A stretch of 64,000 nt of DNA from Candidatus Multivorans sp. (GTDB taxonomy: Bacteria > Acidobacteriota > Thermoanaerobaculia > Multivoradales > Multivoraceae), in contig OZ251997.1 of NCBI GenBank assembly GCA_965247095.1, positions 1,664,001-1,728,000 of the forward strand, read 5' to 3'. The notes below the pieces were generated by a model that worked only from the letters and a program-made list of their open reading frames with translations, was not told where the DNA came from and did no database searches. Position numbers and translations under genes: made by a program. Shown piece by piece: positions 40,364 to 47,247 of this stretch. Each line of letters starts with the position of its first letter. The first letter of the stretch is position 1.

Positions 40364-42061
40364 TCATTCTACGTTCGCGGCGTCACCCGCGTTCCCGGCC
40401 GCGGCCGTGCCGCGGTTCGCGGCCGCCCCCGGCAGCAGAGGCGTAGCACGCCCCATCACTCCCTCGGCTCGCTCGACGAGCCGGTCCAGGCCCGCCCGCG
40501 TCCGCGCGCTGACCGCGATCGCTTCGAGCCGATCCGCCAGCAGTCCGGCGCGCTCCTCGGTCACCAGATCGCACTTGTTCAGCACCACCAGAAGCGGCTT
40601 CGAGTTGAGCGACAGTTCGTCGATCAGCCCTTCCACCGCCTTCACCTTCGAACGCCAGGCCGTGTCGGAGGCATCCACCACGTGCAGCAGCAGATCAGCG
40701 TCGCCGAGCTCCTCCAGGGTGGCGCGGAACGCCCGCACCAGGTCGGGCGGGAGTTCGGCGATGAAACCAACCGTGTCGGTGATCACCACCTCGCCTTCCC
40801 TCGGAAAGCGAATCCGTCGGCTCGTCGGGTCGAGCGTCACGAACAGTTGCGAGGCAGTCTCCACCGAGCTCCGGGTCATCGCGTTGAGAAGCGTGCTCTT
40901 GCCGGCGTTCGTGTAGCCGATCAGGGACAGCACCGGCACCCGACGGTCGCGGCGCCGGCGCCGCGCCACGTCCCGCTGCCTCGACAGCCGCTCGACCTGC
41001 TTCTCGAGCTTGCGGATCCGGTCGCGAATACGCCGGCGCCCCACTTCGAGCACCGTTTCGCCCGGCCCGCGGCCACCGATGCCTCCTGTGAGCCGGGACA
41101 GGCCCTCGTCCTTCTCGGTCAGCCGCGGCAGGGAGTAGCGCAACTGGGCCAACTCGACCTGCAGCTTGCCGTCTCGGGAGCGGGCGTGCTGCGCGAACAC
41201 GTCAAGGATCAGTTGGGTGCGGTCGATCGCCTTGAGGCCGGTCGCGTCCTCGAACGCGCGGGCCTGCGCGGGCTTCAGATCGATGTCGAAGATCGCCACT
41301 TCGGCGCCGGCGCGCATGCTCTGCAGCACGATCTCGGTCAGCTTGCCGCGCCCCACGACGGTCCGCGGGTGAACACGTGACCGGCGCTGGCGCATGACGC
41401 CCGCCACTTCGACACCCGCCGAGCGTACGAGCTCGACAGTCTCCCGAAAGTGATCGGCGTCCGGCCGGACGCCGATCACGAGCGCGCGTTCCCGCTCCGC
41501 CTCGCGTCCGCTGCGCCGCCGGCCCATCTCCCGTTCGACCGCCCGAATGGTTGCCGCGAAGTCGAGTTCCAGCTCGTAGACCTGCGGCGCCTCCACGCGC
41601 AGAAAGGGCGTGGTCTCCGCGGCGCCGTCCGCTGCCGGCTCGGGCGCCAGGTACGCGACTTCGATACCGCCCGCCGAGCCGTCCTCCAGAGCCTGCACCA
41701 CCGCCACCATGTCCAGTCGCAGCAGCGCCAGGTCGTTGAGGTCGTCGGCTGTCAGGCTCTCGCCGCGCAGGTGGGTATGCACGAGGCGCAGTCGGCGGAA
41801 ACGCCCCGGACCGCCCCGCAGGCGGCCGATATCGGGAATCTCGAGCTGCCTGGCGTCGCCGACCATCACCCTGCTGACCGCGCCGTCCCGGGTCAGCAGC
41901 ACACCGACCTGACGTCCGATCTCACGCGAGAGCGCGCACAGGTGACGAGCCAGTTCGGTCGAGACCACCTGGTCCGGTCGCACCTTCCGCCGATAGGTCC
42001 GTTCGAGCGCGCCGCGCTGTGCCGCCTTGAGCCCGCGGACGTCGCCGTGCAGTGGTCTCAT
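40364..42061 (-). CDS. hflX: GTPase HflX, long form with N-terminal extension
   Basis: DRTQLILDVFA, QVELAQL, GYTNAGKS, DTVGF, NKCD. Confidence 0.95.
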   Translation of the reverse strand: MRPLHGDVRGLKAAQRGALERTYRRKVRPDQVVSTELARHLCALSREIGRQVGVLLTRDGAVSRVMVGDARQLEIPDIGRLRGGPGRFRRLRLVHTHLRGESLTADDLNDLALLRLDMVAVVQALEDGSAGGIEVAYLAPEPAADGAAETTPFLRVEAPQVYELELDFAATIRAVEREMGRRRSGREAERERALVIGVRPDADHFRETVELVRSAGVEVAGVMRQRRSRVHPRTVVGRGKLTEIVLQSMRAGAEVAIFDIDLKPAQARAFEDATGLKAIDRTQLILDVFAQHARSRDGKLQVELAQLRYSLPRLTEKDEGLSRLTGGIGGRGPGETVLEVGRRRIRDRIRKLEKQVERLSRQRDVARRRRRDRRVPVLSLIGYTNAGKSTLLNAMTRSSVETASQLFVTLDPTSRRIRFPREGEVVITDTVGFIAELPPDLVRAFRATLEELGDADLLLHVVDASDTAWRSKVKAVEGLIDELSLNSKPLLVVLNKCDLVTEERAGLLADRLEAIAVSARTRAGLDRLVERAEGVMGRATPLLPGAAANRGTAAAGNAGDAANVE

Positions 42062-42460
42062 CTAAGGCCAGTCGGTGGGTTTCGGTCGCAAAGTCAAGAA
42101 ACTGCTATCCTTGCCGCCTCGGCGGTGACGCTGGCCCCACTCGGCAAGCGTCGCGTAACTCGACAGCACGAGTCAGCGCTTGGCTTCAGCCTTTGTCCTC
42201 TAGACAGTCCGTCCATTCTCGGACGACTCACGTCGCTTGAGGGCCAACTGAACAGCCCGTGGTGCATTCAAGGCTACACCCGCCGCCCGAAATGACGCTC
42301 CGGTACGAAAACCGACTCGCGCAGGTGGAACTGCAGCGAACGCAGGGCAGCCGCCCAGCGGGTTCCGTTCATGGAATCCCGTCGCGGCCTGGTGCCCGCG
42401 CAACCGGAGACGTCCACACCGATTCAACCGACGGCGCACTCGCCGTCACCTGGAGATTTT

Positions 42461-44458
42461 GTGACCCGACGAATGCTCATCAACGCGCAGAGTTCAACCG
42501 AGCTCCGCATCGCCATCGCCAACGACTCGGTACTCGAAGACCTGAAGGTCGAGATCGCCGAGCGGGGGCTGACCCGAGGCAACATCTACTACGGCAAGAT
42601 CGCCAACATCGAGCCGAGCCTGAACGCCGCCTTCATCGACTACGGCGCCCCGAAACACGGCTTCCTGGCCATCCAGGATGTCGTGCCCGACGCGTACTAC
42701 CAGGCGGCGTCTAAGTCCCAGCGAACCAAGATCGAGGACGTACTCGTCCGCGGCCGCCCGATCGTGGTTCAGACCACGCGCGAGCCGGAGGGCAACAAGG
42801 GCGCTGCCCTGACCACGAACCTGAGTCTGGCGGGGCGCTACCTGGTGCTTTCGCCCTTCGACAAGACCAGTGGCGTTTCCCGCAAGGTCGACACCGAGGA
42901 GGTTCGCCTCAAGCTGAAGGCGATGGCGGAGTCGCTGCCGGTGCCCGACGGTGGCGGTGTGATCGTGCGCACCAACGCCCTGGGCCAGACGAAGACGGCC
43001 CTCAGTCGGGACATGAACGCGCTGCTCCGGCTATGGAAGCGCATCTCCCGGGACGCCCGCGACGCAAAGGGCACGAGGCTCCTCTACAGCGATCAGGACA
43101 TCGTGCTGCAGGGGCTGCGTGACTATCTCGACAGCGCGATCGAGGAGGTCTGGGTCGATGAAGACACCGCCTACGCACGCGCCGAGCTGTACATGCGGGC
43201 CTTCATGCCGCGCAGCAAGACGGTGCTGCACCGCTACACGGGCCGCAAGCCGCTGTTCTCGGTTTACGAACTGGAACCTCAGATCGAGAACATCTTCGAA
43301 CGCCGGGCGGAACTGCCCGCCGGCGGCTCGATCGTCATCGACCCGACCGAGGCCCTGACCGCCATCGACGTCAACTCCGGCCGGTCGAAGAAGGGATCGA
43401 GTCAGGAGGAGACCGCGGTCAACACGAACATGGAAGCTGCAGCCGAAGTCGGCCGGCAGCTTCGTCTGCGCGACATCGGCGGCCTGATCGTGGTCGATTT
43501 CATCGACATGCGCAGTCCCCGCAATCGCCGCAAGGTCGAGAAGGCGATGAAGGACGCGATGAAGGCCGACAAGGCGCGCTTCAGCGTCGGCCGGATCAGC
43601 GACAACGGGCTGCTCGAGATCAACCGCCAGCGGATCCACCAGGCGCTCCAGTTGCGCACTCACAGCGACTGCCCGAACTGTGGCGGCACCGGCCGCGTTG
43701 CCAGTCCGGACCTGGTCGCCCTGCGCCTGCTGCGCAACATCGAGTCCCACGGCGCCGCCGGCTACATGCGGGGCGTGCGGATGGCCTTGCAACCGCAGCT
43801 TGCCGACCACCTGCAGAACCGGCACCGCGAAGCGCTCGCGAAGCTCGAACGGGAGTTCGATCTCGAAATCGAGATCGCGGGCGAGCCTCAGATGCAGGGC
43901 CGCGAGCCCGAGATCAGTTGGATCGCTCGCGATCTGGCCGAAGTGAAGAAGCGCGAGCGGGAAGAGGCGCAGGAGAAGAAGCTTGAGCAGGAGATGCTCG
44001 CCACTCCCTCGATCGGCGACACCGACGAAGAACTCGAAGAAGTCGAAGAACACGAGGCGGAAGCCGGCGACGGCGCGGCCGAAGGCGCACCGAAGCGGCG
44101 CCGGCGCCGGGGCGGACGCAGGCGGCGGTCCGCAGCCGCGCGCAAGGCGAAGGAGGAGGCACCCAAGGAGGACGGCGACGCCAGGCAGGACGACGACGCC
44201 AAGCAGGCGAAGACGAGCAAGAAGCGACCCGCCAAGGCGAGGAAGACGGCGGGGACGGCCGCCATCAAGGTGCCCGGCATCGACACTCCGGCGGCGGAAA
44301 CTGCGCCCGGCGGCAATGACACGGCCGGCGACGCAGCCGCGGCGAACGGCAACGGAGCGCCGCGCCCGACCAAGCGGCGGCGACGCCGGCGGCGGCCCCG
44401 CCGGCCCCAGGCCGCCGCGGCGGGCAACGAGTCGCCGCCGGCCGAGACGGCTCCCTGA
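42461..44458 (+). CDS. rne: Rne/Rng family ribonuclease with acidic and Arg-rich tail
   Basis: GNIY.G, AAFID, AIDVNSG, LRDIGGLIVVDFIDM, CPNCGGTG. Confidence 0.9.
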   Translation: MTRRMLINAQSSTELRIAIANDSVLEDLKVEIAERGLTRGNIYYGKIANIEPSLNAAFIDYGAPKHGFLAIQDVVPDAYYQAASKSQRTKIEDVLVRGRPIVVQTTREPEGNKGAALTTNLSLAGRYLVLSPFDKTSGVSRKVDTEEVRLKLKAMAESLPVPDGGGVIVRTNALGQTKTALSRDMNALLRLWKRISRDARDAKGTRLLYSDQDIVLQGLRDYLDSAIEEVWVDEDTAYARAELYMRAFMPRSKTVLHRYTGRKPLFSVYELEPQIENIFERRAELPAGGSIVIDPTEALTAIDVNSGRSKKGSSQEETAVNTNMEAAAEVGRQLRLRDIGGLIVVDFIDMRSPRNRRKVEKAMKDAMKADKARFSVGRISDNGLLEINRQRIHQALQLRTHSDCPNCGGTGRVASPDLVALRLLRNIESHGAAGYMRGVRMALQPQLADHLQNRHREALAKLEREFDLEIEIAGEPQMQGREPEISWIARDLAEVKKREREEAQEKKLEQEMLATPSIGDTDEELEEVEEHEAEAGDGAAEGAPKRRRRRGGRRRRSAAARKAKEEAPKEDGDARQDDDAKQAKTSKKRPAKARKTAGTAAIKVPGIDTPAAETAPGGNDTAGDAAAANGNGAPRPTKRRRRRRRPRRPQAAAAGNESPPAETAP

Positions 44459-44516
44459 CAGGCGCCGGCGGCGCCCCGCACCCTTGGGCTGGCTAACCCC
44501 CTGACAACAGGGAGGT

Positions 44517-44546
44517 TTGACAAGGACCCGGCCAATCCATAACTAT
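44517..44546 (+). promoter_or_regulatory. Candidate sigma70 promoter
   Basis: TTGACA at 44517-44522 and AT-rich CATAACTAT at 44538-44546; the -10 is imperfect. Confidence 0.5.
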
Positions 44547-44674
44547 CCCTTCGTAGTCGTTCCGCTCGCGTCGCGAGGCGTCGGCGGCGGTCCCGGGGTC
44601 AATCGGGGCGATCCCGCGACCGGGTGGGTTGGGACCCACCACTTTGTGGATGTGCCCGGAAAGGAGGTGGTCTA

Positions 44675-44719
44675 GTGGAATACTGCAGATGCGGCTTGAT
44701 GGAGGTGGCGGCTCCCTAG
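44675..44719 (+). CDS. Candidate 14-aa peptide MEYCRCGLMEVAAP
   Basis: GTG...TAG directly after AAAGGAGGTGGTCTA, a very strong Shine-Dalgarno. Confidence 0.45.
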   Translation: MEYCRCGLMEVAAP

Positions 44720-44826
44720 GTAACCCCTACCTGGCGTAGGGCGCCTCCTTCGGGAAGCGATCCCACGCCATCCCATCGGCCAAACGCTTGACCGAGCCGC
44801 GCAAGCCGCGGTCCAAGAGCGTCACC

Positions 44827-44868
44827 GGAGCCCCGAGGAGCAGACGCCCTCGGGGCTCCTTCCTTTCC
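44827..44868 (+). terminator. Terminator-like hairpin
   Basis: GGAGCCCCGAGG/CCTCGGGGCTCC 12-bp perfect stem followed by TTCCTTTCC. Confidence 0.65.
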
Positions 44869-44985
44869 GATTCGCCTCAGGGCCCTGGACCCCTCAGAGC
44901 CCAGTTCCGTACAATCGCCCCCCACAATCCTGGTTCCATCCGCGCGCCCGATGACGGGCGTGCGGATTCACCGGCGGAGACGAAC

Positions 44986-47247
44986 ATGGCGGCGATCGGC
45001 ACCCCCACAAAACTGCTCGAGGGCAAACCCAAGGTCAAGGGCTCGCTGCGCTACTGCGGCGACCTCGAACGGCCCGGGCTGCTCCATGTCCGTCTGGTCA
45101 CCAGCCCGCACGCGCACGCCGAGGTGCTGAGCATCGATACCGCGGCGGCTGAGGCCATGCCCGGCGTCGCCGCCGTCATCACGGCAGCGGATCTGCCCGA
45201 ACTCCCGGCCAATAGCCGAGCGATGCTCATGCTCGCGCGCGATCGGGTCATCTTCGTCGGCCATCCGGTCGCCCTGGTCCTGGCCGAGGACGAGGCCCGG
45301 GGCGCGGATGCAGCGGAACTGGTCGAGGTCGACTACCGGCCGCTCGACGCCGCGGTCACCCTGGAACAGGCCGAGGCCCCTTCGGCGCCGCCGGTGTGGC
45401 CCGACGGCCTGCCCGGCCAGTCCGCGGAGGCAGCGGCGCACGGCGCCGGGGGCGCCGGCGACGACGGCGGCGCGGGTCCCTCGTCGCCCAACGTGACGAA
45501 CCGCATGCGCTTTGACCGCGGCGACCTCGCCGCCGGCTTCGCCGCCGCCGACGCCGTGGTCGAACGGAGCTTCACCACCGCGGCGGTTCACCAGTCCTAC
45601 CTCGAACCGCACGTGGCTCTGGTCGACCCGGACCCGATGGGCACCGGAATGACGATCTACAGCTCTACCCAGGCGACGTTCTACATCCGGGACACGGTCG
45701 CCTACGTGCTCGGCCTGTCCCACGAGCAAGTGCGCGTGATCGGCACGCCGGTCGGCGGCGGCTTCGGCGGAAAGTTCCTACTTTACGAACCGCTCCTGGC
45801 CATCGCCGCGACGCAGCTCCAGCGCCCGGTGCGACTGATGATGAGCCGAACCGAGGAGATGCTGGCCGCCACTCCCGCGCCCTCGACCCGGATCACGATT
45901 CGCGCCGGCGCCAAGCGGAGCGGCGAGCTGACGGCGCTGGAAGCCGAGCTGGCGATGGACTGCGGCTGCTTCCCATCTTCCATGACCGCACTCGCCGGCA
46001 CCCTGCTCGGCAGTTCCTACCAGACGCCGAATCAGTCCGTCGGCAGCTACGAGGTCGTCACGAACAAGCCCTCGATCGGCGCCTACCGTGCGCCGCTGGC
46101 GCCGCAGGCGGCGTTCGTGGTTGAGACCGTGCTCGATCAACTGGCCCAGGAGTTGGGGCTCGACCCCCTCGAGATGCGGCTCATGAACGCCTCGGAGTCC
46201 GGCCAGCCGATGGCCTCCGGAATGCCCTGGGCCGGCATGGGCCAGCGCCAGGTGCTGGAGGCGCTGCAGGCCCACCCCTCGTGGCAAAACCGCGAGCAGG
46301 CAAGGGCGGAGGGCCGCGGAGTCGGCATCGCGCTCGGGGCCTGGCCGGGCGGCACGGAGCCCGCGGCGGCCGCCTGCGCGCTCCAGGGCGACGGTACGCT
46401 CAAGGTTCACATCAGTTCGGCCGACATCACCGGCACGAACACGAGTCTGGCCCTGATCGCGGCCGAGGCCTTCGGCGTCGAACCGGAACGGGTCACGATC
46501 GCCACCGGCGACACCTCGAGCGGACCCTTCGCCGGCTCCTCCGGCGGCAGCAAGATCCTCTACACGGTCGGGCCGCCAGTGATTCAGGCCGCCCGTGAGG
46601 CCCGGCAGCAGACCCTGGAGCTGGCCGCGGCCACGTTCGAAGCAGCACCCGAAGACCTAGAGATCGTGGACGGAGAGGTCCGGGTCAAGGGATCGCCCGA
46701 CAAGGCCATTCCGCTCAAGAAAATCGCCCAACGCACGATGCGCTTCGGCAGCCGGCAGGCGCCGGTGTTCGGCCACGGACGCCACGCCCAGACCGGTCAG
46801 GCGCCCGGTTTCTGCGCCCAGCTCGCCGAGGTGGCGGTCGACCGGGAAACAGGCCGGGTGAAGGTCGAGAAGGTGGTCGTGGTCCAGGACTGCGGACGCG
46901 CGATCAACCCGCCGGCAGTCGAAGGGCAGATGATGGGCGGCGCCATGCAGGGCATCGGTTGGGCGCTCTACGAGGAGATGGCCTACAGCGACGACGGCCA
47001 ACTGCTGACAGCGACCCTGAACGACTACGCCCTGCCTCACTTCGTCCACGGTCCGACCGAACTCGAGACGGTGCTTGTCGAGGTGCCCTCGGACAGCGGG
47101 CCCTTCGGCGCCCGCGGCGTCGGCGAACCGCCCGTTATTCCTACCGCGGCCGCGGTCGCCAACGCAATCGCCGATGCCTGCGGCGCCCGACTCACCGAGC
47201 TGCCGATGACGCCGCCGCGCGTCCTGGCTGCCATCAACGGAGCCTGA
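44986..47247 (+). CDS. Xanthine dehydrogenase family molybdopterin-binding (large) subunit
   Basis: SPHAHA, YLEPH, GGGFGGK, AYRAP, VEGQMMGG, GVGEPP. Confidence 0.92.
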   Translation: MAAIGTPTKLLEGKPKVKGSLRYCGDLERPGLLHVRLVTSPHAHAEVLSIDTAAAEAMPGVAAVITAADLPELPANSRAMLMLARDRVIFVGHPVALVLAEDEARGADAAELVEVDYRPLDAAVTLEQAEAPSAPPVWPDGLPGQSAEAAAHGAGGAGDDGGAGPSSPNVTNRMRFDRGDLAAGFAAADAVVERSFTTAAVHQSYLEPHVALVDPDPMGTGMTIYSSTQATFYIRDTVAYVLGLSHEQVRVIGTPVGGGFGGKFLLYEPLLAIAATQLQRPVRLMMSRTEEMLAATPAPSTRITIRAGAKRSGELTALEAELAMDCGCFPSSMTALAGTLLGSSYQTPNQSVGSYEVVTNKPSIGAYRAPLAPQAAFVVETVLDQLAQELGLDPLEMRLMNASESGQPMASGMPWAGMGQRQVLEALQAHPSWQNREQARAEGRGVGIALGAWPGGTEPAAAACALQGDGTLKVHISSADITGTNTSLALIAAEAFGVEPERVTIATGDTSSGPFAGSSGGSKILYTVGPPVIQAAREARQQTLELAAATFEAAPEDLEIVDGEVRVKGSPDKAIPLKKIAQRTMRFGSRQAPVFGHGRHAQTGQAPGFCAQLAEVAVDRETGRVKVEKVVVVQDCGRAINPPAVEGQMMGGAMQGIGWALYEEMAYSDDGQLLTATLNDYALPHFVHGPTELETVLVEVPSDSGPFGARGVGEPPVIPTAAAVANAIADACGARLTELPMTPPRVLAAINGA

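Follow-up and report, generated by a model that had tools for sequence, protein, structure and literature searches.

What kind of gene lies in the 352-nt stretch downstream of the RNase E/G gene, at positions 44517 to 44868 of the window (the whole 64,000-nt stretch of DNA that was analyzed, to which all coordinates refer)? The original prediction had described a stand-alone, structured and unannotated RNA unit with its own promoter and terminator, possibly a dual-function RNA, and had proposed an Rfam search, a search for homologs with covariation and a search for RNA evidence. The stand-alone unit is retained here, and the term "dual-function" proved to be a fair guess, since the RNA carries a conserved mini-ORF. 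In our reading, to which we assign a probability of roughly 0.7, positions 44553 (approximately) to 44868 would constitute a gene that is present once in the genome and transcribed on its own, the product being a structured "ribosome-docking mini-mRNA" of about 315 nt.

The element (approximately 44553..44868, + strand) combines a promoter, about 315 nt of stems and a terminator hairpin into one unit, and a genome-wide search revealed only one copy of it in its own genome. The borders of the unit are defined by two features:

44517..44546, + strand: promoter, with the -35 hexamer TTGACA at 44517-44522, a spacer of 17-18 nt and a -10-like TAACTAT at 44540-44546
44827..44868, + strand: terminator read from the sequence, a 12-bp stem of 44827-44838 with 44848-44859 and a 9-nt loop, followed by UUCCUUUCC

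The TTGACA site, the run of consecutive stems and the 12-bp terminator-like hairpin, all pointed out earlier, were found in place. The TTGACA hexamer is invariant in the alignment of 25 sequences of the same genus. Moreover, a promoter-like pair (a -35 with at most one mismatch, a spacer and NANNNT) was found at the matching distance in 83 of 114 family loci, compared with 2 of 114 in a downstream control stretch subjected to the identical scan. Transcription would start near 44553 (+/- about 3) and presumably terminate at the 12-bp hairpin, whose stem strands are GGAGCCCCGAGG/CCTCGGGGCTCC, followed by TTCCTTTCC, and whose counterpart in relatives shows changes on both sides in eight of nine pairs. 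A simple consensus scanner reported neither the promoter nor the terminator of the element, because the -10 is weak and the T-tract is interrupted. The + strand of the 352-nt stretch folds at -175.5 kcal/mol, which is better than its shuffled versions (z = -3.9, 0/100 shuffles as good).

RNA evidence comes from library contigs of four studies that map on the element, three of them (X1, X2 and X7) with matches starting at 44555-44571; such contigs carry no strand, end or level information, and the libraries can contain DNA:

RNA-library contig X1, 199 nt: 44564-44762
RNA-library contig X7, 209 nt: 44571-44779
RNA-library contig X2, 303 nt: 44555-44831, plus 26 letters upstream of the predicted start
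RNA-library contig X9, 552 nt: 44494 to 44848, thus about 60 nt upstream of the predicted start, plus 190 unlike letters

Two of the four contigs (X2 and X9) extend upstream past the predicted start. The flanks of the element (44381-44488 and 44867-45028) have no cover in the four RNA-library runs; as contigs drop rare sequence, these uncovered flanks are not usable as evidence. Short high-depth pieces at 44646-44679 derive from Shine-Dalgarno regions of other organisms, and the runs X3-X6, X8 and X10-X14 contained only small shares of the sampled words. By prediction and conservation, the stand-alone RNA gene with its own promoter and terminator can be regarded as real.

The defining features of this RNA lie in its middle part:

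44658..44676, + strand: extended Shine-Dalgarno sequence (SD1), GGAAAGGAGGUGGUCUAGU, recognized by its pairing with the organism's own 16S 3' end
44675..44719, + strand: mini-ORF read from the sequence, with a GUG start at 44675-44677, 14 codons (MEYCRCGLMEVAAP) and a UAG stop at 44717-44719
44701..44710, + strand: second Shine-Dalgarno-like box, GGAGGUGGCG, in frame as the codons x-GAG-GUG-GCG, 11 nt before the stop

The complement to the 16S tail (44658-44673), the GUG start at 44675 and the 14-codon frame were all absent from the original prediction. The 16S tail used in this comparison is the organism's own, read from the 3' end of the 16S gene in the genome. Positions 44658-44673 complement all 16 nt of the free tail, GGAUCACCUCCUUUCU, with 13 Watson-Crick and three G-U pairs, and the pairing can extend to 44676, which gives 19 contiguous pairs with G-U or 11 with Watson-Crick pairs only. 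Across the family, the Watson-Crick runs with the 16S tail have 8-17 nt. The 13-mer AAGGAGGTGRTCY is present in the genome here and, on the opposite strand, at the 3' end of the 16S gene itself, and nowhere else.

It should be stressed that the search itself fixed the SD core, the GTG and the GGAGGTGGCG box of the pattern-derived sets, so that nothing follows from their invariance there, and only the BLAST-derived set is unbiased in this respect. The SD1 positions left free by the search favor pairing: the four 5' positions hold a purine in 116-143 of the 149 sequences, and the position opposite G is a pyrimidine in 149/149. The base preceding GTG is A or G in 125 of the 149 sequences and unable to pair with the 16S rRNA in the other 24. 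A search for co-variation of RNA and 16S rRNA found identical 16S tails in all six genomes whose RNAs differ (A, U, C, G) at the base before GTG. As this base varies while the tails are identical, pairing past the 16-nt free tail is not generally selected. Partition-function folds of 68 relatives, a model that leaves pseudoknots outside, gave no consistent partner masking or exposing SD1.

The GUG start is placed 7 nt after the GGAGG core. Among at least 120 stretches matching the exact pattern, an ORF of 12-15 codons ending in E-V-A-x(-x)-stop could be read in 116. Of 148 sequences, 144 have a distance of 17, 20, 23 or 26 nt between the GTG and the GGAGGTGGCG box; the four exceptions are one chance match and three sequences of a reduced variant. 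Within 111 distinct ORF bodies, the variable part contains no in-frame stop among 767 triplets, compared with 54 and 86 stops in the other two frames. After the GCG, a stop follows in frame two codons on in 100 bodies and three codons on in 11, and it may be TAG, TAA or TGA. The second box lies 11 nt, or 14 nt in some relatives, before the stop codon and is invariant in the relatives found by BLAST, save GCA for GCG in one of them (L027). Variability at third codon positions is only slightly higher than at the first two (1.53 bits vs. 1.24 and 1.30), and the N-terminal half of the peptide is hypervariable, with no residue of codons 2-6 conserved across the family. The lack of in-frame stops together with indels in threes only is, in these comparisons, a clear signature of translation, even though the peptide as such is barely conserved; the mini-ORF is presumably translated.

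Around this frame, the following elements of the fold were distinguished (helix coordinates include the enclosed loops):

44562..44587, + strand: hairpin P1 of the MFE fold, CCGCU.CGCGU-loop-GCGGC.GGCGG, ending in the near-invariant GCGGCGG
44589..44621, + strand: helix P2/P2b, 44589-44600 with 44610-44621, whose loop AAUCGGGGC holds the GGGC of PK-A
44623..44640, + strand: hairpin P3, GGUGGG / CCCACC, with the loop UUGGGA
44606..44657, + strand: pseudoknot PK-A, GGGC 44606-44609 (P2 loop) with GCCC 44654-44657, directly 5' of SD1
44630..44765, + strand: pseudoknot PK-B, UGGGA 44630-44634 of the P3 loop with UCCCA 44761-44765, adjoining the 3' strand of LR
44704..44772, + strand: long-range helix LR, GGUGGCG 44704-44710 (codons of the ORF) with CGCCAUC 44766-44772
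44715..44734, + strand: stop-codon hairpin read from the sequence, CUAGGUA / UACCUGG
44742..44759, + strand: hairpin with an internal anti-Shine-Dalgarno copy, CGCCUCC-UUCG-GGAAGCG, in which CCUCC 44744-44748 can pair with GGAGG
44784..44822, + strand: genus-specific extra hairpin, ACGCU..GACCG..CCGCG-loop-CGCGG..CGGUC..AGCGU

The search for homologs and covariation found relatives whose fold covaries. In a set of 68 sequences with identities below 80%, pairing is possible in 94.0% of cells, compared with 36.7-52.4% when the partners are slid, and 27 of 41 pairs change on both sides, compared with 12-18 in the slid controls; none of 500 shuffles reached the observed values. For P2/P2b (alignment A1), both sides change in all six pairs of columns 88-93/129-134 and in three of the four pairs of columns 108-111/120-123. 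For P3, they change in five of six pairs, with 95.6% of cells paired, and for PK-A in three of four, with 96.3% paired. PK-A appears in A1 as GGGCG:CGCCC, AGGCG:CGCCU and GAGCG:CGCUC, and as a full swap, GCCC:GGGC, in L041. The loop and partner classes of PK-B covary as well (UUGGG:CCCAA, GGGG:CCCC, UAGGG:CCCUA and UGGGA:UCCCA), the mean pairing run being 5.06 with the own partner vs. 4.74 with shuffled ones (maximum 4.93 in 1000 shuffles). LR is paired in 99.4% of cells, with changes on its 3' strand only, all of them preserving the pairing through G-U. At the place of P1, in a poorly aligning region, relatives have a hairpin of variable sequence ending in CGCGGCGG.

Further downstream, the stop codon lies wholly in the loop of a short hairpin in 38 of 68 local folds of relatives. 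By thermodynamic prediction (local MFE fold), a YCUCC further downstream takes up at least four of the five bases of the in-ORF GGAGG, itself a fixed sequence, in 47 of 68 relatives. The extra hairpin at 44784..44822 is present in most sequences of the genus (not in L018, L020 and L026) and absent outside it. A candidate pairing of a downstream GUGGCG copy with a CGCCACC strand was rejected as a switch, with an own-partner value of 5.16 vs. a shuffled mean of 5.01 and maximum of 5.31. The second GUGGCG copy is present in many relatives, often just as part of a small GCGC-GUG-GCGC hairpin.

Among the stems named in the original prediction, GGTGGGT/ACCCACC corresponds to the covarying helix P3, CTAGGTA/TACCTGG to the hairpin around the stop codon and ACGCT..GACCG/CGGTC..AGCGT to the hairpin confined to the genus. 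The enclosing CCGGG/CCCGG helix had to be abandoned: it shows no compensatory change, one of its pairs is held in only 33 of 68 sequences, and its bases serve P2 and PK-A, which do show compensatory changes.

The pseudoknotted 5' domain invites a refinement of the best explanation, in which the domain would be a riboswitch-like or protein-binding sensor and the translation of the mini-ORF would be gated by a signal. The domain is present only in this branch, as RNAs of the Ms_IGR-5 and CC2171 types (compared below) start just before the SD; it contains near-invariant unpaired nucleotides (GCGGCGG and the GGGCGG loop), and the two pseudoknots link it to both ends of the ORF region. However, no ligand, protein partner or gene set is indicated, the genomic context not being conserved, no riboswitch family matched, and the folds do not show SD1 masked. 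We keep this refinement as a tentative one, on balance rather unlikely.

It may also be argued that the element is a purely non-coding structured sRNA, whose SD-like sequence and ORF are untranslated by-products of folding or of pairing with a target. LR and the stop hairpin do overlap the conserved residues of the ORF (E-V-A and the last two codons), the peptide is hypervariable in its N-terminal half, and Rfam lists the relatives CC2171 and Ms_IGR-5 as sRNAs. Folding constraints alone, however, leave the features of the frame unexplained: the 0/767 in-frame stop triplets (vs. 54 and 86) in an otherwise variable region, the length changes in threes only (17, 20, 23 and 26 nt), a stop of any of the three kinds always in frame two or three codons past the GCG, and a start codon 7 nt after GGAGG. 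These features weaken the non-coding reading, and we consider it quite improbable.

If the frame is translated, the element could be chiefly a gene for a functional 14-residue peptide, with the RNA structure only controlling its synthesis. The frame stays open, variation in codons 7-8 falls mainly on the third position (GGY, UYN), and several genus-level changes are synonymous (GAA/GAG, TAC/TAT, TGC/TGT and GCG/GCA); moreover, the RreB and RreR peptides of Alphaproteobacteria are reported to be conserved within their clades (PMC5711450). On the other hand, codons 2-6 encode many unrelated residues across the family, and the peptide of the element shows no likeness to RreB-type (MSFTKRCHLAGIAR) or RreR-type peptides. 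Although the genome is GC-rich, A/U prevails at the third positions of the frame, an indication of selection for unstructured RNA over codon usage, and a covarying structure of about 270 nt is a large apparatus for 14 residues. The synthetic RreB and RreR peptides are also described as unstructured and overproduction as being without a phenotype (PMC5711450). A gene made mainly for its peptide is thus, in our opinion, a poor candidate.

The distribution of the element was established with homolog sets that rest on BLAST or exact patterns. By BLAST, it was found in all 24 other genomes of the genus, with 77-93% identity, while the core of about 100 nt (SD1 and ORF) was found in five of 16 genomes from other families of the order. 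Among the at least 120 stretches matching the exact pattern, 80 carry a title, of which 62 are from Acidobacteriota lineages, six from Krumholzibacteria, two from Latescibacteria and one from Fibrobacteraceae. The occurrence is patchy: among 401 genomes in a sample of the phylum, 23 contain the exact pattern, and a relaxed pattern matched none of 54 genomes from other orders of the class.

The genes for HflX and RNase E/G, to which the original prediction had tied the RNA, are both present beside the element, but this link is not borne out elsewhere: in a comparison of 15 loci from different genera and families, based on a crude choice of ORFs in GC-rich DNA, flanking proteins were shared in just two weak pairs. 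That the element acts in cis on a neighbor, either as a structured 3' UTR belonging to RNase E/G or as a leader-peptide attenuator controlling the molybdenum hydroxylase gene that follows, is highly improbable: although it lies 59 nt past the stop codon of RNase E/G, with 118 nt left to the ATG of the next gene, has the mini-ORF and terminator of a classic attenuator layout and is covered by a contig (X9) extending upstream, it has its own conserved promoter, a separate promoter-like site (44886-44915) is located between its terminator and the next gene, its flanking genes are not shared, its ORF contains no regulatory codon run and no conserved residue in the variable part, and no antiterminator alternative to the terminator stem was seen.

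In the covarying fold around the ORF, the 5' domain (P1-P3) tethers the segment immediately 5' of the SD via PK-A and the 3' strand via PK-B, and the end of the ORF pairs with the latter strand through LR. For the preferred reading, that of a ribosome-docking mini-mRNA, the order of events may be pictured as follows, with an interpretation borrowed from the rreB experiments (PMC5711450). A 30S subunit, which by analogy the element would be expected to bind, would dock with its whole 16S tail on the extended SD, much more strongly than on a normal mRNA, and initiation at the GUG would be slow. A translating ribosome would then have to open both LR and the GGAGG:CCUCC hairpin. Once the stop codon is reached, the second GGAGGUG box thus freed could re-pair with the 16S tail at an initiation-like spacing, 8 nt before the P-site codon. 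In this way, a ribosome would be held by the RNA at either end of a minimal track, and the fold and lifetime of the RNA would depend on ribosome engagement. In our view, sensing or buffering of free or newly made 30S subunits is more likely than a peptide role.

These results extend the range of a design. Until now, Alphaproteobacteria were the only group in which small RNAs that pair with the whole free 16S tail and maintain a tiny frame had been described as such. The design can now be recognized also in Acidobacteriota and neighboring phyla, in a more elaborately folded form with two pseudoknots connecting the 5' domain to both ends of the ORF, and the ORF end (GAG-GUG-GCN, two codons, stop) together with LR is common to the element and the Ms_IGR-5-type loci. 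The signature of the frame and these shared elements point to a conserved interaction with the ribosome, and neither to a peptide nor to an antisense regulator. Concrete elements that can be mutated to address function are SD1, the second box, PK-A, PK-B and LR. Current Rfam models miss this branch entirely.

In agreement with the earlier statement that the RNA lacks the hallmarks of tRNA, tmRNA, RNase P and SRP RNA, no Rfam family reached its gathering score anywhere in the window. The element thus remains below every Rfam threshold, but it has relatives, namely rreB/rreR in its design and the Ms_IGR-5 type in its ORF end and LR. Models of tRNA, tmRNA and 6S RNA have no match in the window, and the tmRNA and 6S RNA of this organism are encoded elsewhere (genome positions 3250158-3250501, 134.7 bits, and 3622688-3622874, 71.7 bits, respectively). 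The element resembles tmRNA in having a short ORF within a structured RNA, but tmRNA has no SD and start codon, both of which are found here. With leader-peptide attenuators (trpL, hisL and pheL) it shares a short ORF in a structured RNA and a terminator after the ORF; it differs in lacking a controlled downstream operon, a regulatory codon run and a visible antiterminator.

The next comparison concerns Ms_IGR-5 (Rfam RF02471), catalogued as an actinobacterial sRNA of no known function. The window aligns weakly to the full length of this model from 44653 to 44865 (14.9 bits, E = 0.57, gathering score 45), while none of 18 family loci tested, nor one reduced variant, matched it at E 0.1 or better. 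One locus of what we call the Ms_IGR-5 type passes the RF02471 threshold; such loci come from Methylomirabilota/Rokubacteria, Binatia, Nitrospiria and others, and their shared architecture is a definition drawn here from the sequences, not Rfam's. They have an extended SD (AGGAGGUGRUCC) and an ORF of 12-15 codons ending, like that of the element, in E-V-A-x-x-stop encoded from GAG-GUG-GCN, with the stop exactly three codons past E-V in 119 of 120 loci. Their counterpart of LR joins the last part of the ORF to a downstream strand that finishes in CACC shortly ahead of the terminator, and it covaries (6.43 with the own partner vs. 5.95 with shuffled ones, maximum 6.18 in 200 shuffles); also, past the stop codon, a CCUC(C) strand serves as partner for the GGAGG-like box. 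The differences are that these RNAs start a few bases before the SD, with no 5' domain, PK-A or PK-B, and that UUG or AUG is in most cases the start codon, which lies outside the 16S complement at 10-12 nt after AGGAGG. That Ms_IGR-5 encodes a mini-ORF is our own reading of the sequences; a narrow literature search found no paper stating it.

The model of CC2171 (Rfam RF01867), a Caulobacter sRNA of no known function, starts in its consensus with a perfect complement to the 16S tail and GUG. Its threshold is passed by five of ten alphaproteobacterial extended-SD loci, and CC2171 therefore covers part of the rre class. As in the element, a strand immediately preceding the terminator pairs with a segment of the ORF, but the ORF is longer (MSHC..., 21-26 codons), and both a second GGAGGUGG box and a 5' domain are missing. 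The window has no match to CC2171 at E 10 or better, and of the 18 family loci tested, seven reach only 24.7-31.7 bits, with the threshold at 75.

The closest design is that of rreB and rreR, small mRNAs of Alphaproteobacteria with 30S binding and without known function, described by Hahn et al. (RNA Biol 2016/17, PMC5711450). There, rreB co-sediments with 30S subunits, is weakly translated and has a start-codon-dependent stability, while its overproduction has no effect on growth (PMC5711450), which argues against simple ribosome titration. The element resembles them in being a stand-alone small transcript with its own promoter and terminator (here predicted), in an SD extended on both sides along the 16S 3' tail and into the G of the GUG start, in its tiny ORF (14 codons in rreB, 18 in rreR and 14 here) and in a genomic context that differs from clade to clade. 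In the window, the pairing runs on through A44674 and G44675 into the GUG, as in the rre genes. The element is longer (about 315 vs. 165 nt), its 16S complement has 11 perfect nucleotides and needs G-U pairs for the rest, whereas the rre genes have 16-17 perfect pairs, and 30S binding is demonstrated for rreB alone. The pseudoknotted 5' domain has no counterpart in rreB/rreR, and the in-ORF GGAGGUGG / GGAGGTGG box or a CCCAAC strand was found in none of the 120 loci retrieved with an alpha-type perfect extended SD, which are mostly alphaproteobacterial by title. One alpha-type match in Streptomyces (L209) corresponds to no Rfam family at E 0.01 or better and is probably a chance site.

It is tempting, though rather doubtful at present, to regard the element, the Ms_IGR-5-type RNAs and rre/CC2171 as branches of one ancient and widespread ribosome-engaging class, built of a docking site that fits the mature 16S tail perfectly and a test track of 12-25 codons, in whose E-V-A branch the second box would recapture the ribosome at the stop. 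Such RNAs might serve as a proofing or parking substrate, e.g., for a pioneer round on newly matured 30S subunits or as a gauge of idle subunits that sets the lifetime of the RNA, and the 5' domain might be a gating sensor in the Acidobacteriota and Krumholzibacteria/Latescibacteria/Fibrobacteraceae branch. Judged by its predicted parts, the design of the element is that of rreB/rreR, in a more elaborately folded variant with a previously undescribed pseudoknotted 5' domain of about 100 nt.

The element lies in an intergenic gap of 527 nt, and the original prediction of a stand-alone structured RNA unit was borne out: it is a real, conserved RNA gene with a promoter and a terminator hairpin. 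That prediction had overlooked the extended Shine-Dalgarno sequence (SD1), the GUG at 44675 and the 14-codon ORF. The locus comprises:

40364-42061, - strand: HflX-type GTPase gene
42371-44458: RNase E/G gene, upstream of the gap (Pfam RNase_E_G, E = 1.8e-93)
44517-44522: TTGACA (-35), read in the sequence
17-18 nt after TTGACA: -10-like TAACTAT, read in the sequence
Between the -10-like site and the end of the unit: GC-rich stems, ~315 nt
44589-44600 with 44610-44621, + strand: helix P2/P2b, stem of the 5' domain
44606-44609 with 44654-44657, + strand: pseudoknot PK-A, GGGC of the P2 loop with GCCC just 5' of SD1
44623-44628 with 44635-44640, + strand: helix P3, a hairpin with the loop UUGGGA
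44630-44634 with 44761-44765, + strand: pseudoknot PK-B, P3 loop with UCCCA
44675 (GUG) to 44717-44719 (UAG stop), + strand: mini-ORF of 14 codons, MEYCRCGLMEVAAP
44704-44710 with 44766-44772, + strand: long-range helix LR, GGUGGCG of the ORF with CGCCAUC
44827-44838 with 44848-44859, + strand: terminator hairpin of 12 bp, followed by the U-rich tail UUCCUUUCC
44986 (ATG): gene of the molybdenum-cofactor aldehyde oxidase/xanthine dehydrogenase family, downstream of the gap

The homolog search proposed with the original prediction was productive, relatives being found both by BLAST and by an exact pattern. BLAST with 44500-44900 indicated a single copy in the organism's own genome and located the element in all 24 of 24 further genus genomes (77-93% identity); of 16 genomes belonging to other families of the order, 5 carried a core of approximately 100 nt (44620-44720). 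When 25 genus sequences were aligned, no variation was seen in the -35 hexamer, the CCCGGAAAGGAGGTGGT stretch or the GGCTTGATGGAGGTGGC box. Promoter-like -35/-10 pairs were recognized 100-120 nt 5' of SD1 in 83 of 114 loci, versus 2 of 114 in a control stretch, and since the pair stands at this distance, the 5' domain is part of the transcript. In some genus members, among them L008 (G024:C1, ~4082830-4082963), L093 and L139, the 3' part of the RNA is interrupted directly behind CAUCGGCC by an insertion of ~134 bp with repeated GGGTGGCGCG-ATC-GCGCCACCCG-like arms, and the BLAST match is split at this point (query 1-288 and 285-374); to judge from its sequence, the insertion resembles a small mobile repeat.

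The exact pattern, AGGAGGTGRTCNNGTG-N17-32-GGAGGTGGCG, was scanned against one genome per GTDB species and gave at least 120 stretches, of which 80 among those listed carry titles. These were Acidobacteriota lineages (Thermoanaerobaculia, Vicinamibacteria, 'Multivoradales', 'Marinacidobacterales' or unspecified; 62 matches), Krumholzibacteria (6), Latescibacteria (2), Fibrobacteraceae (1), Eisenbacteria with a reduced variant (1), unclassified 'bacterium' (7), and Pseudomonadota, the last being a chance match within a coding region (1). Across the phylum, the pattern was present in 23 of 401 sampled genomes and 13 of 231 genera, and a reversed control pattern had no match in the 401 genomes. 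A relaxed pattern matched 12 of the 16 further genomes tested within the order, but 0 of 54 from other orders of the class. The distribution is patchy, and more diverged versions would escape both patterns. In the reduced variant (L109, L141 and L144; Eisenbacteria-labelled and similar contigs), the promoter directly precedes the extended SD, without a 5' domain, and the ORF has 12 codons (MHK.GLSGGGGS) with the GGAGGTGGCG box read in a different frame; the AAUCCCAACCGCCAACC strand and the terminator are retained.

The 16S rRNA of the same organism ends in ...CCUGUGGCUGGAUCACCUCCUUUCU, and 44658-44673 (GGAAAGGAGGUGGUCU) is able to pair with its free tail (GGAUCACCUCCUUUCU) over the whole 16 nt, 13 of the pairs being Watson-Crick and 3 G-U. 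The pairing is extendable to 44676, giving 19 contiguous pairs with a longest Watson-Crick-only run of 11. Apart from this RNA, the only place in the genome with the 13-mer AAGGAGGTGRTCY is the 3' end of the 16S gene, where it lies on the opposite strand; the 16S tails were identical in the six genomes compared for RNA/16S co-variation. No consistent partner masking SD1 was found in the folds, and the A-rich bases just 5' of it were the most open (unpaired probability 0.53-0.73).

The five distant BLAST homologs all kept the GUG-started frame, with 14 or 15 codons (one with a 3-nt insertion) and TAG or TAA as the stop; TGA was found in the genus sequence L030. Among the pattern matches listed, 116 of 120 had an ORF of 12-15 codons ending E-V-A-x(-x)-stop, and it should be stressed that sets retrieved with the pattern cannot vary in the SD core, the GTG or the GGAGGTGGCG box, since the search prescribes them. 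The gap between the GTG and the box was allowed to be anything from 17 to 32 nt; in 148 sequences it was 17 nt (2), 20 nt (12), 23 nt (123) or 26 nt (7), and the remaining four (18 nt in three, 21 nt in one) were one chance match and three reduced-variant sequences. Because 144 of 148 gaps are of 17, 20, 23 or 26 nt, the frame is kept in every true member. In the variable part between the GTG and the GGAGG box of 111 distinct ORF bodies, 0 of 767 triplets in the ORF frame were stops, and the other two frames held 54 and 86; bodies with at least one such stop numbered 0, 49 and 73, respectively. The in-frame stop followed GCG by two codons in 100 bodies and by three in 11 (TAG 69, TAA 31, TGA 11), whereas 93 of 111 bodies were stop-free within 40 nt when read in the two alternative frames. 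The peptide is poorly conserved, with many residues at codons 2-6, mainly Gly at codon 7 and Leu or Ser at codon 8; positional entropy was 1.24, 1.30 and 1.53 bits for codon positions 1, 2 and 3, and third positions are A/U-rich. We read these sequences as suggesting that selection favours translating an open, unstructured track rather than a particular peptide.

A hand-built structure was tested on an alignment of 68 family sequences with <80% mutual identity. Paired cells amounted to 94.0% of 2770, versus 36.7-52.4% after the 3' partners had been shifted by 1-3 columns; changes on both sides were seen in 27 of 41 pairs (12-18 in the shifted controls), with 180 double-change cells (22-47 in the controls), and none of 500 shuffles matched any observed measure. 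PK-A occurs in the aligned rows as GGGCG:CGCCC, AGGCG:CGCCU and GAGCG:CGCUC, and as a full swap, GCCC:GGGC, in one locus (L041). As MAFFT partly mis-registers PK-B, its loop and partner classes were tabulated directly, and they covary (UUGGG:CCCAA, GGGG:CCCC, UAGGG:CCCUA, UGGGA:UCCCA), the mean own-partner run being 5.06 versus 4.74 with shuffled partners (maximum 4.93, 1000 shuffles). LR varies in its 3' strand only, always keeping G-U pairing; its 5' strand is invariant, as expected, because the search pattern fixes it. The CCGGG/CCCGG helix of the original prediction competes with P2 and PK-A and found no support. In predicted local folds, the in-ORF GGAGG would pair with a downstream YCUCC (at least 4 of 5 bases) in 47 of 68 sequences, and the stop codon would lie wholly inside a hairpin loop in 38 of 68. 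The minimum free energy of the + strand was -175.5 kcal/mol (z = -3.9, 100 shuffles), and the - strand fold had z = -2.8.

Four metatranscriptome studies cover the element in Logan contigs, i.e., runs X1 (199 nt, 44564-44762, wholly inside the element, >99% identical), X7 (209 nt, 44571-44779), X2 (303 nt, 44555-44831 plus 26 unlike letters upstream) and X9 (552 nt, 44494-44848 plus 190 unlike letters upstream). These contigs speak to presence, not to ends, strand or level: the RNA or its close relatives are represented in RNA libraries, DNA carry-over being possible. Short contigs in X2 and X7 (345 and 123 nt; word depth 150 and 108) match only the Shine-Dalgarno region (44646-44679) and then diverge, one continuing ...GGTGATCAGTGAGGTGGT, which suggests high levels of related mini-mRNAs from other organisms in these metatranscriptomes.

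An HflX-type gene lies nearby, as originally noted, on the other strand. The link then suggested to HflX and RNase E/G proved local, as flanking proteins hardly ever recur among 15 loci of different genera and families (two weak pairs only); the adjacency is a genus feature and no evidence for function. The HflX-type ORF has 565 aa as listed, with the GTPase N-domain beginning only at residue 204, so either its true start lies further in or it bears an N-terminal extension of ~200 residues. Directly before the promoter of the RNA gene, the RNase E/G ORF ends in an Arg/Pro-rich C-terminus of low complexity (44360-44458; KRRRRRRRPRRPQ...). A promoter-like TGGACC-18-TACAAT (44886-44915) follows the terminator and precedes the molybdenum hydroxylase gene; the GGTTCCGTACAATCGC motif is found again at this location in other genus members. 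In one Acidobacteria relative (L035, 169-242), a tRNA gene on the opposite strand directly follows the terminator; rreB, a published alphaproteobacterial small mRNA, is reported to adjoin a tRNA-Gly gene (Hahn et al., PMC5711450), which is probably a coincidence.

The analysis establishes a docking sequence, a maintained frame and a second in-frame box at a fixed distance from the stop, together with a fold that anchors both the ORF end and the strand leading into SD1 to the 5' domain as well as to a single 3' strand. A 30S subunit would bind through its whole 16S tail and initiate slowly at the GUG; the translating ribosome would then melt LR and the GGAGG:CCUCC hairpin. With the ribosome at the stop codon, the freed GGAGGUG would stand 8 nt before the P-site codon and, because this is an initiation-like spacing, could catch the 16S tail again. 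The RNA may thus be a substrate reporting on, or holding, ribosomes, its fold and lifetime being set by ribosome engagement, as the rreB experiments would suggest by analogy.

The original prediction had taken the RNA for an unannotated one, which agrees with the Rfam search of the entire 64-kb window, where no family reached its gathering score; by score, the element belongs to no current Rfam family. At E up to 10, 44300-45100 gave five weak matches, including a full-length one to the sRNA family Ms_IGR-5 (RF02471; 44653-44865; E = 0.57 and 14.9 bits, where 45 are required). The tmRNA and 6S RNA of the genome are located elsewhere.

PMC5711450 describes the rreB of Bradyrhizobiaceae as a small mRNA of 165 nt with a 14-codon sORF and 17 nt perfectly complementary to the 16S 3' end, the G of the GTG start included; it co-sediments with 30S subunits, is weakly translated and gains stability on exchange of its start codon for a stop codon, and it has no known function. 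The rreR of Rhodobacterales has an 18-codon sORF, and rre genes are reported there in four alphaproteobacterial orders only. In 120 retrieved loci with a perfect extended SD and GTG, mostly alphaproteobacterial by title, we found ORFs of 14 codons (MSFTKRCHLAGIAR), 18 codons (MSRVILERGVGTVRGAVA) and 21-26 codons (MSHC...). Because a second GGAGGTGG box or CCCAAC strand occurred in 0 of these 120, the rre type has the design in common with the RNA of the window, but not the body. The Rfam family CC2171 (RF01867) was matched above threshold by 5 of 10 alphaproteobacterial extended-SD loci; in a run of CC2171 and Ms_IGR-5 on 18 family loci, the reduced variant L141 and a Methylomirabilis locus (L234), it gave only 24.7-31.7 bits in 7 of the 18. 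The literature covered on rreB, rreR, CC2171 and Ms_IGR-5 contains neither rre beyond Alphaproteobacteria nor a mini-ORF in Ms_IGR-5, and passages of two papers describe CC2171 and Ms_IGR-5 as plain sRNAs.

L234 passed the Ms_IGR-5 threshold (67.7 bits), and its order is an extended SD, GUG and 15 codons ending C-E-V-I-V-T-stop, with a GGUGAUUGU:GCAGUCACC helix before the terminator. A second scan (extended SD plus UGUGAGGUGG) gave at least 120 loci, those listed including Actinomycetota (Mycobacterium, Streptomyces, Pseudonocardia and others), Rokubacteria/Methylomirabilota, Binatia, Nitrospiria, Terriglobia and others. Among the matches listed, 118 of 120 had an in-frame start, with ORFs of 12-15 codons (M..WTCEVAA[RS]), and in 119 of 120 the stop came exactly three codons after E-V, the same spacing as in the window's family. 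In this type, a ...CACC strand located downstream pairs with the ORF end, and the pairing shows compensatory changes (own-partner run 6.43 versus 5.95 shuffled, maximum 6.18, 200 shuffles). We therefore regard the RNA of the window as related to the Ms_IGR-5 type, though diverged and extended at its 5' end; with respect to rre/CC2171, we see it as an analogue and possibly as distantly related. In structure it represents a new form of a known, functionally unexplained RNA type.
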